IMG/VR virus record: IMGVR_UViG_3300026224_000024
Reading direction: 5' to 3' (one strand)
Length of the DNA stretch: 14,163 nt
Source of the DNA: a virus
Taxonomy: Duplodnaviria; Heunggongvirae; Uroviricota; Caudoviricetes
Shown here: positions 127 through 14,163 of the stretch, in pieces
Numbering within the stretch: position 1 is the first letter of the stretch
Layout: each line of letters starts with the position of its first letter
Position numbers and translations under genes: made by a program
The notes under the pieces: model-generated
Seen by the model: only the letters and a program-made list of their open reading frames with translations
What the model was told of the DNA's origin: nothing
Database searches by the model: none

Positions 127-394
127 CAATAACAGTATACTTTTTCATCACAATATCATCTTTCGAAGCATGAGAAATAATCTGGTTTGATAAAGTATAC
201 TTAAAAAATTTAGCAATATCTGGAGCGATAGGAGCTTTAATGATTTTAAAATCGAATTTATCAACAACTCTTGCGGTTCTACTCATACCCGCTTTAAGAT
301 GTCTAGTAATGAAATACAACGATATTTTCGCCGCATCATCATCCTTAAGTTGCTCAGCATACTCTAATAATTCTTCAAGCTTTAACATTTTCAT
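122..394 (-). CDS. Hypothetical soluble protein, distal gene of the AT-rich cassette; 3' end interrupted by IS1 (last codon and stop supplied by the IS1 end)
   Basis: 90-aa ORF starting at the ATG 394-392, which overlaps the upstream gene's TGA stop (ATGA). The stop TGA (124-122) and the last Gly codon lie inside the IS1 inverted repeat, so the native C-terminus is unknown. The locus is visibly AT-rich. Confidence 0.55.
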   Translation of the reverse strand: MKMLKLEELLEYAEQLKDDDAAKISLYFITRHLKAGMSRTARVVDKFDFKIIKAPIAPDIAKFFKYTLSNQIISHASKDDIVMKKYTVIG

Positions 395-1005
395 TCCTTA
401 TGGGATTCAGCATAAAAAAGTTTTGGGCCCACGTCCTCAACATCAAGAAGATCATCTTCCTCCAAATACTTTGATTTAGTCAAAACCATACCAGTGCGTT
501 TTTTGTCGCTTTCTAAATCCAAATATGTAACTTGATATAAAGTATAATTAATACTTATTGTAGGATTTATAAGTATCATGCTTGAATTAATATATATTAA
601 AGCCGTTACCGTTAACAATATTGCTATTGGTATAACATTAGTTAAAGTGGATAGATCCTGAAATACAAACGGAATTATATATGTAAAAAGATAGCTTATT
701 GATTCATTGTTTTTATTTTCAATATCTATAACTCTTACAGTTCTACCACTAGTGGCGCATCGACGTTTTATATTTTTTAAAAAAATTGTTAATCCTACAA
801 TACCAAATAATGATAATACACCAATGACACTGACCGCGCCAAAGTATTTAAAGAAAATAGTTAATGATTCAACACTTATACCTTTCCAATTTAAATAGCT
901 TCTATAAGTATACAATTGCACAAAACACATGATAAAGAATAGGGGAAGGTATGACACTATAAATAGCGAAACTCTAGCACCTAAATGTAGTTTATTTACT
1001 CTCAT
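391..1005 (-). CDS. Hypothetical integral membrane protein (about 4 predicted TM helices, ~58-aa hydrophilic acidic C-terminal tail)
   Basis: 204-aa ORF with an ATG start at 1005-1003. Hydrophobic stretches at roughly aa 12-31, 52-76, 103-117 and 123-146. Translationally coupled to the downstream ORF. AT-rich, unlike the rest of the prophage. Confidence 0.6.
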   Translation of the reverse strand: MRVNKLHLGARVSLFIVSYLPLFFIMCFVQLYTYRSYLNWKGISVESLTIFFKYFGAVSVIGVLSLFGIVGLTIFLKNIKRRCATSGRTVRVIDIENKNNESISYLFTYIIPFVFQDLSTLTNVIPIAILLTVTALIYINSSMILINPTISINYTLYQVTYLDLESDKKRTGMVLTKSKYLEEDDLLDVEDVGPKLFYAESHKE

Positions 1006-8656: not shown

Positions 8657-11353
8657 ATGAGCACAAAACCACTCTTCCTGTTACGGAAAGCGAAAAAATC
8701 ATCCGGTGAACCTGACGTCGTCCTGTGGGCAAGCGACGATTTTGAATCGACCTGTGCCACTCTGGACTACCTGCTCGTTAAGTCAGGTAAAAAACTGAGC
8801 AGCTATTTTAAACCTGTTGCCACGAATTTTCCTGTCGTTAATGACCTTCCCCCTGAAGGTGAGATCGATTTTACCTGGAGTGAACGCTATCAACTCAGCA
8901 AAGACTCAATGACCTGGGAACTAAAACCGGGAGCAGCGCCAGACGACGTTCACCACCAGGATAATGCTCAAGAAACCAAAGAACTGGCGGGAGGCCAGGA
9001 AGAAAACGCGCAGGCAGACGCCCACGAGGATTGCCAGGATTGCGAAGTCTCTGTAGCCACTTTGCGGTTCACACAGCGTCTTCTGCACATTTTTACGTAT
9101 GCAGCCGGGGATCGGAAATACCTGCATCATGCCACCCGTGAACAACGGAAACACATTACTGCTCTTGAGATGGATCAGGAAAACAGCTATGTCCAGAATC
9201 TGCTGTTGGCCATACGCAGCATGGCAGAACCGACAACTCTGGATAATGCCGCCCTGCTCCGCCTGACTGATGCAATTAAGGCAGTGTTCTCTATCACGAA
9301 AAAACATCAGCCCTATGAATTTAAGAATTTCATTTCAGCCTGGCTGGATACCGAACACATTGATCGCGGTCTTCTGACAAAAGAATGGCGAAAAGGAAAT
9401 CGTGTTTCACGCATCACGCGCACGGCTTCCGGCGCTAATGCTGGCGGCGGGAACCTCACCGATCGCGGCGAAGGTTTCGTTCACGATCTGACGTCACTGG
9501 CGCGCGACGTAGCCACTGGCGTACTAGCTCGTTCAATGGACGTGGACATTTATAACCTTCATCCGGCACACGCTAAACGTGTCGAGGAAATTATCGCTGA
9601 AAATAAACCACCCTTTTCTGTTTTCCGCGACAAATTCATCACCATGCCTGGTGGGCTGGATTATTCCCGCGCCATCGTGGTTGCGTCCGTAAAAGAAGCA
9701 CCAATTGGGATCGAGGTTATCCCCGCACACGTCACTGAATATCTGAACAAAGTACTGACTGAAACTGATCATGCCAACCCTGATCCAGAAATCGTGGATA
9801 TTGCCTGCGGTCGTTCCTCTGCCCCGATGCCGCAGCGTGTAACAGAAGAAGAAAAACAGGATGATGAAGAAAAACTGCAACCATCTTGCGCAATGGCAGA
9901 TGAACAGGCAACGGCTGAAACAGTGGAACCGGATGCAACTGAACATCATCAGGACACGCAGTCGCTGGATGCTCAGTCACAGGTAAATTCTGTTGATGCG
10001 AAATATCAGAAACTGCGGGCAGAACTCCATGAAGCCCGGAAAAACATTCCGCCCAAAAATCCTGTCGATGCAGACAAATTACTGGCTGCCTCTCGCGGAG
10101 AATTTGTTGAAGGGATTAGCGACCCGAATGATCCGAAATGGGTTAAGGGGATCCAGACTCGCGACTCTATATACCAGAATCAGCCAGAAACGGAACAGAA
10201 CGACCAGAAAGCGGAACAGAACGACCCAAATACGCAACAAAACGAGCCAGAAACGAAACAGCCTGAGCCAGTAGTGCAACAACAGGAAACGGAGAAAGTT
10301 TGCACCGCCTGCAGTAAGGCTGGCGGCGGCAACTGTCCTGACTGTGGCGCGGTGATGGGCGACGCAACATACCAGGAAACATTCGGTGAAGAGAATCAGG
10401 TTGAAGCTAAGGAAAAAGATCCGGAGGAAATGGAAGGCGCTGAACATCCGTACAATGAGAATGCTGGCAGCGATCCGCATCGCGATTGCAGTGATGAAAC
10501 TGGCGAAGTCGCAGATCCCGTAATCGTAGAAGACATAGAGCCAGGTATTTATTACGGAATTTCGAATGAGAATTACCACGCGGGTCCCGGTGTCAGTAAG
10601 TCTCAGCTCGATGACATTGCTGATACTCCGGCACTGTATTTGTGGCGTAAAAATGCCCCCGTGGACACTACAAAGACAAAAACGCTCGATTTAGGAACCG
10701 CTTTCCACTGCCGGGTACTTGAACCGGAAGAATTCAGTAACCGCTTTATCGTAGCACCTGAATTTAACCGCCGTACAAACGCCGGAAAAGAAGAAGAGAA
10801 AGCGTTTCTGATGGAATGCGCAAGCACAGGAAAAACGGTTATCACTGCGGAAGAAGGCCGGAAAATTGAACTCATGTATCAAAGCGTTATGGCTTTGCCG
10901 CTGGGGCAATGGCTTGTTGAAAGCGCCGGACACGCTGAATCATCAATTTACTGGGAAGATCCGGAAACAGGAATTTTGTGTCGGTGCCGTCCGGACAAAA
11001 TTATTCCTGAATTTCACTGGATCATGGACGTGAAAACCACAGCGGATATTCAACGATTCAAAACGGCTTATTACGACTACCGCTATCACGTTCAGGATGC
11101 ATTCTACAGTGACGGTTATGAAGCACAGTTTGGTGTGCAGCCAACTTTCGTTTTTCTGGTTGCCAGCACAACTGTTGAATGCGGACGTTATCCGGTTGAG
11201 ATTTTCATGATGGGCGAAGAAGCAAAACTGGCAGGCCAGCAGGAATATCACCGCAATCTGCGGACCCTGGCTGACTGCCTAAATACCGATGAATGGCCAG
11301 CTATTAAGACGTTATCACTGCCCCGCTGGGCTAAGGAGTATGCAAATGACTAA
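8657..11353 (+). CDS. recE: Exonuclease VIII (RecE): long disordered acidic N-terminal region, C-terminal 5'-3' exonuclease domain
   Basis: 898-aa ORF. The C-terminal ~270 aa match recalled RecE nuclease domain sequence. The 3' end overlaps the recT start. The N-terminal region is low-complexity with heptad-like repeats. Confidence 0.9.
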
Positions 11354-12179: not shown

Positions 12180-12223
12180 TCCAGCCTGGCGGTGTAATGC
12201 ACCGCCAACGTGAGATAGTTTTT

Positions 12224-12430
12224 ATGACAAAAACTTTGAGATATGACGATGTTAAACCATGTCCGTTTTGTGGTTGTCCATCAGTAACGGTGAAAGACAT
12301 TTCAGGATATTACCGGGCAAAATGCAACGGATGCGAATCCCGAACTGGCTATGGTGGAAGTGAAAAAGAAGCGCTCGAAAGATGGAATAAACGAACCACT
12401 GAAAATATTAATGGAGGCGTTCATGTATAA
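12224..12430 (+). CDS. ralR: Restriction alleviation protein Lar/RalR (anti type I restriction)
   Basis: Start chosen at the ATG 12224; begins MTKTLRYDDVKPCPFCGCPSVTVKDISGYYRAKCNGCESRTGYGGSEKEALERWNKR with a CxxC ... CxxC zinc ribbon. Matches recalled Rac Lar. Confidence 0.8.
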   Translation: MTKTLRYDDVKPCPFCGCPSVTVKDISGYYRAKCNGCESRTGYGGSEKEALERWNKRTTENINGGVHV

Positions 12431-12611
12431 AATTACCGCTACAATTGAAAAGGAAGGTGGCACTCCTACTAACTGGACAAGATATTCAAAATCTAAACTA
12501 ACGAAATCAGAATGCGAAAAAATGCTCTCAGGTAAAAAAGAAGCAGGCGTTTCCAGAGAGCAGAAAGTAAAACTGATAAATTTTAATTGCGAGAAACTTC
12601 AGTCCTCGTGA
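12423..12611 (+). CDS. ydaC: YdaC-like small protein
   Basis: ATG at 12423 with a GGAGG SD, overlapping the ralR 3' end. 62 aa. Position between ralR and xis, as in Rac. Confidence 0.6.
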   Translation: MYKITATIEKEGGTPTNWTRYSKSKLTKSECEKMLSGKKEAGVSREQKVKLINFNCEKLQSS

Positions 12612-12659: not shown

Positions 12660-12710
12660 ACATCAGGCGTCAATTTCAGTCTAACATTGGCGCCTGCCAG
12701 AGGTGATGCG

Positions 12711-12926
12711 ATGGAACAAGTAATCTTTAATGAAGAGTGGATGGTTGAATACGGCCTGATGCTTCGCACTGGTCTGGGGGCCAGACAAATTGAAGCATAC
12801 CGCCAGAACTGTTGGGTGGAGGGCTTCCACTTCAAACGAGTATCTCCTTTAGGTAAGCCAGACAGCAAACGAGGGATTATCTGGTACAACTATCCAAAGA
12901 TAAATCAGTTTATCAAAGACTCATGA
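12711..12926 (+). CDS. xisR: Excisionase (Xis; YdaQ/XisR-like)
   Basis: ATG at 12711 with an AGGTGA SD. 71 aa beginning [32 protein letters not shown]. Directly upstream of int. Confidence 0.8.
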
Positions 12927-12984
12927 TATATCTAAATTACCAACAGGTGTCGAGATTAGAGGTAGAAACATTCGCATCTGGTTC

Positions 12985-14163
12985 ATGTTTCGAGGAAAAC
13001 GATGTCGGGAAACATTAAAAGGCTGGGAGATTACAAACAGTAATATTAAAAAGGCCGGAAATTTAAGAGCGCTGATAGTTCATGAAATAAACTCCGGTGA
13101 ATTTGAGTATTTAAGACGTTTTCCCCAGTCCAGCACTGGGACAAAAATGGTGACAACGAGAGTCATAAAAACGTTCGGGGAGCTTTGTGATATCTGGACA
13201 AAAATTAAAGAGACAGAGTTAACAACAAACACAATGAAGAAAACGAAATCACAATTAAAAACACTCAGAATAATAATTTGTGAAAGTACCCCGATATCAT
13301 ATATTCGTTATAGCGATATCTTAAACTACCGGAATGAACTGCTGCATGGAGAAACGCTTTACCTGGATAATCCAAGATCCAACAAAAAAGGAAGAACCGT
13401 GCGCACAGTTGATAACTATATCGCCCTTCTCTGTTCGCTGTTACGTTTTGCGTATCAGTCGGGATTTATATCAACCAAACCATTTGAAGGAGTAAAAAAA
13501 TTACAGCGAAACAGAATAAAGCCTGACCCGTTATCTAAAACAGAATTCAATGCATTAATGGAAAGTGAAAAAGGACAGAGCCAAAACTTGTGGAAATTTG
13601 CCGTTTACTCCGGGCTTCGTCACGGGGAACTGGCAGCTCTTGCGTGGGAGGATGTGGATTTCGAGAAGGGAATTGTGAATGTCAGAAGAAACCTGACGAT
13701 ACTTGATATGTTCGGTCCCCCAAAAACAAATGCCGGGATCCGGACGGTAACATTACTACAGCCAGCTCTTGAAGCACTGAAGGAGCAATACAAACTGACC
13801 GGGCATCATCGCAAAAGCGAAATCACTTTTTATCATCGGGAGTACGGCAGAACCGAAAAGCAAAAACTGCATTTTGTTTTCATGCCCAGGATGTGTAACG
13901 GAAAACAGAAACCTTATTACTCGGTAAGCAGTTTGGGTGCGAGATGGAATGCAGCAGTAAAACGTGCTGGTATTCGCCGCCGTAATCCGTACCATACGCG
14001 ACATACTTTTGCCTGCTGGCTGTTGACGGCAGGAGCGAACCCGGCATTTATAGCCAGCCAGATGGGGCATGAAACTGCGCAGATGGTGTATGAAATTTAC
14101 GGTATGTGGATTGATGACATGAACGACGAACAGGTAGCTATGTTGAATGCGCGGTTATCGTAG
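12985..14163 (+). CDS. intR: Tyrosine site-specific integrase (IntR-like); coordinates are from the first in-frame ATG, but conserved N-terminal coding extends upstream to about 12928 without a start codon
   Basis: 392 aa from the ATG at 12985, with C-terminal catalytic residues (R..HTRHT.. and a Tyr near the end). The frame stays open 27 codons upstream (stop at 12901) and encodes SKLPTGVEIRGRNIRIWF, which resembles the lambda Int arm-binding N-terminus. The window ends at the int stop codon. Confidence 0.85.
   Translation: MFRGKRCRETLKGWEITNSNIKKAGNLRALIVHEINSGEFEYLRRFPQSSTGTKMVTTRVIKTFGELCDIWTKIKETELTTNTMKKTKSQLKTLRIIICESTPISYIRYSDILNYRNELLHGETLYLDNPRSNKKGRTVRTVDNYIALLCSLLRFAYQSGFISTKPFEGVKKLQRNRIKPDPLSKTEFNALMESEKGQSQNLWKFAVYSGLRHGELAALAWEDVDFEKGIVNVRRNLTILDMFGPPKTNAGIRTVTLLQPALEALKEQYKLTGHHRKSEITFYHREYGRTEKQKLHFVFMPRMCNGKQKPYYSVSSLGARWNAAVKRAGIRRRNPYHTRHTFACWLLTAGANPAFIASQMGHETAQMVYEIYGMWIDDMNDEQVAMLNARLS

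Follow-up and report, generated by a model that had tools for sequence, protein, structure and literature searches.

The Rac prophage of Escherichia coli K-12 is proficient in excision, with XisR as its excisionase (PMC4632033), and the K-12 transcripts of xisR and intR rise together about 100-fold upon RacR depletion (PMC11014345). K-12 Rac, CP-933R and Sp10 (at ttcA) share with the element described here the gene order recE-recT-ralR/RalA-DUF1187-xisR-intR-ttcA. The window, by which we mean the whole 14,163-nucleotide stretch of viral DNA that was analysed, ends with the integrase gene of this module, and at the position where the relatives have the ATG start codon of intR, it has ATA. We describe the locus, the distribution of the two alleles and the consequences that the change would be expected to have for the prophage.

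Organisation of the locus

The best matches to the whole window among complete E. coli genomes and phage records give 80% coverage at 96% identity and 65% coverage at 93% identity. These matches begin at position 1118 or later and leave positions 1-1117 without a counterpart; Pfam gave no match for the two open reading frames at this left end (122-394 and 391-1005, minus strand). Past the start of the window, the contig continues for only about 11 bases, so that the break in the assembly probably falls inside the prophage. Over its last 4,179 bases, the window is identical to the ENA metagenome contig ERZ27241745 k141_8557, and the junction is also present in the isolate genome of TW09231, an Escherichia of cryptic clade III that was isolated from water in Michigan (PMC3466228).

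In the early region, recE (8657-11353) codes for 898 amino acids both here and in TW09231, versus 883 in the otherwise close locus of GCA_052800005.1. The recE-recT region is just 94-97% identical between the TW09231 locus and the latter, which indicates mosaicism in the early region. A RalR/RalA type I toxin-antitoxin pair adjoins xisR on its upstream side (12197-12430 on the plus strand and 12429-12607 on the minus strand). RalA was recognised through an Rfam match of 218 bits, with a gathering score of 170, while the Lar/RalR-family reading frame is 77 amino acids long, compared to 64 for ralR in the O157-type and GCA_052800005.1 loci. For xisR, the program-made list of reading frames chose a TTG at 12687 (79 amino acids); the start equivalent to that in RefSeq is the ATG at 12711 (71 amino acids), which has the Shine-Dalgarno sequence GAGGTGA. 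The features of the junction and of the integrase gene are collected in Table 1.

Table 1. Features of the xisR-intR junction and of the integrase gene, in window coordinates
Feature	Positions	Strand	Basis
xisR excisionase gene, 71 amino acids, stop codon TGA at 12924-12926	12711-12926	+	Pfam DUF1233 putative excisionase, E = 6.5e-21; homology to RefSeq xisR
In-frame TAA closing the int frame upstream	12901-12903	+	Sequence
Out-of-frame ATG overlapping the xisR stop codon as ATGA, 31-amino-acid reading frame	12923-13018	+	Frame +1 relative to int
Conserved position of the intR start codon, ATA here and ATG in relatives	12928-12930	+	Gap-free ortholog alignments, RefSeq intR starts
intR coding sequence, 411 codons and stop, intact except for the start codon	12928-14163	+	Translation, identity to WP_024257432.1
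Arm-type DNA-binding domain, residues 5-69	12940-13134	+	Pfam PF12167 Arm-DNA-bind_2, profile 1-65 of 65, E = 6.6e-26
Met20 codon, first canonical in-frame start	12985-12987	+	A start there drops residues 1-19, i.e. 15 of the 65 arm-domain profile positions
Tyrosine recombinase catalytic domain, residues 205-391	13540-14100	+	Pfam PF00589 Phage_integrase, E = 2.7e-23

The integrase and its start codon

Downstream of the TAA at 12901-12903, the int frame is open, beginning with 12904. None of its codons as far as 12984 is an ATG, GTG or TTG, and the ATG of Met20 at 12985 is the first canonical start. The original prediction had described the frame in just this way, and it was also right that the ATG at 12923-12925, the only one near the junction, is out of frame and overlaps the xis stop codon. 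That 27 successive codons lack a canonical start is not surprising by chance (p of about 0.27), and the missing start is noteworthy because of homology, not because of the length of the run. The residues encoded ahead of Met20 (SKLPTGVEIRGRNIRIWF), earlier judged to be arm-binding-like, do form part of the arm-binding domain according to Pfam, with 19 conserved arm-binding residues preceding the methionine.

Alignment with the intR genes of E. coli Rac-like prophages and with other orthologues is free of gaps and places an ATG at the equivalent of 12928. At the junction, it contains no insertions or deletions and shows a single difference from the relatives, a G-to-A substitution at 12930 that turns ATG into ATA. 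The start-codon mutation that had been listed among several possible causes is the correct one. The tract ATATAT, suspected of being prone to slippage, reads ATATGT in the relatives. A frameshift or slippage in an (AT)3 repeat, with translation beginning at the ATG at 12923 and shifting into the int frame, could be imagined from the position of this ATG, 5 nt upstream in another frame with the repeat in between. It is nevertheless extremely improbable: the alignment has no gaps and the tract differs by a substitution, which excludes the indel or slippage first proposed; genomes with a normal int ATG have the same ATGA overlap at the xisR stop codon, with the same spacing; and a slippery heptamer of the X XXY YYZ type was not found in 12923-12945.

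The remainder of the gene is whole. It is separated by 4 nt from the ATG-bearing allele of GCA_052800005.1, namely by the start codon and three synonymous sites, and the products are identical (record WP_024257432.1). An O157-type allele differs at 18 further codons, with 13 of the differences synonymous. No further disabling lesions (stop codons, frameshifts or truncation) and no excess of non-synonymous change were found in intR. A decaying pseudogene of a domesticated prophage was considered and rejected, given the intact reading frame and the absence of amino-acid differences from the nearest ATG allele. The catalytic residues Arg231, Arg358, His381 and Tyr391 are all present, as judged by alignment with the integrase of Tn1549 (PDB 6EMY). 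In this alignment, the position of the conserved histidine of the H-x-x-R motif is occupied by a tyrosine in IntR (Tyr355-His-Thr-Arg358, with the tyrosine codon at 13990-13992). The gene has the features of a Rac-type IntR, with an N-terminal PF12167 domain, a PF00589 domain with its Arg-Arg-His-Tyr set, xisR directly upstream and ttcA directly downstream; in place of the canonical ATG at 1-5 nt past the xis stop codon, it has ATA. A sequence search of the PDB matched the catalytic domain only, to the Tn1549 integrase, and returned neither a template for the arm domain nor a match to lambda Int. A single-sequence AlphaFold2 model of Int had a mean pLDDT of 32.6, and no structural claim is built on it.

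Gene callers restricted to ATG, GTG and TTG report a product of 392 amino acids from Met20, while the NCBI call in TW09231 (WP_024257432.1) is 411 amino acids long and begins at the ATA. The variant is thus already handled in public annotation by a homology-guided call.

Distribution of the two alleles

The xisR-intR junction was matched in 1,847 of the 5,426 complete E. coli genomes, at identities of up to 99.5%, in Rac-like prophages. In these, the RefSeq intR is 411 amino acids long and starts at an ATG equivalent to 12928, 1 nt after the TGA of xisR. Exact matching with a probe of 63 nt, with the site at its centre, found the ATA version in none of the 1,838 junction-bearing complete E. 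coli genomes (the k-mer of the ATA allele is CTCATGATATATCTAAATTACC). The corresponding ATG 63-mer was present, exactly, in 1,435 of 1,839, and three sampled genomes without it differ only at a synonymous AGA/CGA site.

Among species-representative genomes, the homologous codon is ATG in all twelve full-length orthologues, down to about 70% identity. They span E. ruysiae, E. coli, Shigella and two metagenome-assembled genomes, with Enterobacter, Erwinia and Citrobacter at about 70%. In each, the xis stop codon lies 1-5 nt upstream of the ATG, which is followed by S/A-K/A-LPTGVEIR. In all twelve, Met20 is conserved as an internal residue, and it is the start in none; orthologues beginning at its equivalent, which the original prediction had named as evidence that would refute it, were not found, as every one examined begins at the equivalent of 12928. 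Exact-pattern scans of GTDB species representatives and of JGI metagenome contigs gave no hits to the ATA junction, a result that shows its rarity only. Elsewhere the integrase is lost by other natural routes: in E. coli O121 RM8352 (locus L011, 1524-2737), intR is interrupted after about 95 bp by an IS3-family element, and the remainder is annotated in RefSeq as a separate intR coding sequence. In strain M15 (H133) the intR position is occupied by an "Arm DNA-binding domain-containing protein", perhaps a truncated intR.

The same ATA is found in three assemblies: the TW09231 isolate genome (GCA_000208465.2, AEJW01000243.1), ENA ERZ27241745 k141_8557 and Logan SRR5487539. Over 11-17 kb, the three show 100% identity, and their contigs end at different points. 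Judged from their sequences, they are one clone assembled at least three times; that their read sets are independent we infer solely from the distinct accessions. This bears on the proposal that the A at 12930 arose by an error in sequencing or assembly and that ATG is the true codon, which would fit with the origin of the window in a MEGAHIT-style metagenome contig and with the lack of the variant in the 1,838 complete E. coli genomes, the GTDB species representatives and the JGI metagenomes. A random error is unlikely to be shared by three assemblies, however, and here the base is common to an isolate genome from 2011 and to the ENA and Logan assemblies, all three with differing break points, making the error explanation very improbable.

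The host flank dbpA-zntB (12261-15095 of locus L006) is at most 91.6% identical to all 5,394 complete E. coli genomes, which fits with the placement of TW09231 in cryptic clade III. The xis-int region (window 12680-13300), on the other hand, shares 99.5% identity with the Rac-like prophages of E. coli. The difference between prophage and flank suggests that E. coli and cryptic clade III recently exchanged the prophage, or its int end. These identities point to recent acquisition rather than long residence and to a young mutation. A domesticated prophage had been put forward together with the start-codon mutation; the mutation stands, but domestication is weakly supported, as int is otherwise undamaged and the closeness of the DNA to E. 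coli suggests that the element arrived recently.

Expected effects on integrase synthesis

The predicted Shine-Dalgarno pairing of xisR is strong, at −10.1 kcal/mol with a spacing of 4. For the int start it is just −0.9 kcal/mol, i.e. there is none, and for Met20 it is −2.7 kcal/mol with a spacing of 1, which is unusable. The xisR stop codon lies 1 nt ahead of the int start (TGA-T-ATG in the relatives), an arrangement that is kept in distant orthologues. Taken together, the int start without a Shine-Dalgarno sequence and the xisR stop codon 1 nt upstream suggest that Int is probably made by translational coupling, with re-initiation following translation of xisR. No terminator-like sites or plus-strand promoter-like sites were detected between the xisR start and int. 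A scan for promoters and terminators around xis-int found no terminator and three promoter-like sites, where 1.6 ± 1.3 were expected, which by itself does not establish a transcription unit.

We propose that xisR and intR would share a transcript and that Int would be synthesised by termination-reinitiation after xisR. Published values for E. coli reporters put initiation at AUA at 1-2%, or 0.02-3%, of the AUG level (bioRxiv 10.1101/063800). With AUA replacing AUG, full-length Int might then be produced at roughly 0.02-3% of the normal rate, a figure that comes from reporters in other sequence contexts; the efficiency of AUA during re-initiation could exceed these values or fall below them. 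The out-of-frame ATG at 12923 would probably capture part of the re-initiating ribosomes. Little product would be expected from Met20, which lacks a ribosome-binding site and whose product would have a truncated arm domain.

In lambda Int, arm binding is required for both attP x attB and attL x attR recombination. By analogy, a product starting at Met20 is not expected to support arm-dependent recombination. That such an N-terminally truncated Int is nevertheless the functional product, as the original prediction offered among its explanations, is highly unlikely. Met20 is the first canonical start, and the 392-residue protein is what restricted gene callers report, but Met20 has no Shine-Dalgarno sequence at a usable spacing and is internal to the arm-binding domain in all orthologues. 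A start there would lose profile positions 1-15 of 65; low-level synthesis of some such protein may occur, but from the comparison with lambda, it would not be expected to support excision.

As judged from its int-side end, the prophage is likely to be strongly reduced in both excision and integration and largely locked at ttcA. The other parts of int, as well as xis, are intact.

Discussion

A real G-to-A transition at 12930 mutated the intR start codon to ATA in the TW09231 lineage, and it probably reduces Int strongly and leaves the prophage largely locked; we regard this explanation as a whole as very probable. The case is an ordinary strain-specific mutation in the known Rac IntR/XisR module and involves no new mechanism.

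The same codon could also be read as a selected attenuating start, which lowers Int to stabilise a beneficial prophage, in the manner of the AUU of infC or the GTG of lacI. The intact state of the rest of xis and int would agree with this, natural start-codon choice can be adaptive (PMC11445065) and Rac excision affects fitness in K-12 (PMC4632033; PMC11014345). However, the variant is limited to one clone and occurs in no other ortholog, with no sign of persistence or recurrence, and a neutral or slightly deleterious mutation fully explains one G:C-to-A:T transition, so that we regard selection for attenuation as quite unlikely. It is likewise unlikely that the AUA serves as a genuine start through termination-reinitiation, yielding a low level of functional Int from an attenuated allele kept by selection for prophage stability. 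If the AUA were used in this way, intR would be a natural case, rare in Escherichia, of a gene initiated at AUA.

The importance of the mutated start codon is mainly for annotation practice, where the choice is between a 392-amino-acid call with a truncated arm domain and a 411-amino-acid call with an ATA start. If the mutation locks the prophage, TW09231 would constitute a natural control for the cost or benefit of Rac excision, for example in the escape from YdaS/YdaT toxicity upon RacR depletion. It would also permit testing of translational coupling between xisR and intR.

The codon resembles the AUU of infC and the GTG of lacI in being a non-AUG initiation codon of the kind that reduces translation, but those codons are conserved across strains and species, whereas the ATA is private to one clone. 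This speaks against a regulatory codon of the infC type, the ATA occurring in 0/1,838 E. coli genomes and 0/12 species representatives. With lambda Int and Xis, the module shares an arm-binding N-terminal domain, core-binding and catalytic domains and an excisionase gene directly upstream. It differs in the Pfam family of the arm domain, which is PF12167 and not lambda-type, and no internal int-only promoter comparable to lambda pI was detected in xisR by a weak consensus scan. The disrupted intR of O121 RM8352 is, like the present one, a natural lesion of this gene that leaves xisR intact; there, the insertion disrupts the protein, while the present point mutation keeps the coding sequence whole. 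The closest resemblance is to the Rac-like prophages themselves, with which the element shares a 99.5% identical xis-int region, a 411-amino-acid Int with Arm-DNA-bind_2 and Phage_integrase domains and an xisR stop codon 1 nt before int. It is set apart from them by ATA in place of ATG and by a cryptic clade III host, whose flanking DNA is at most 91.6% identical to that of E. coli.
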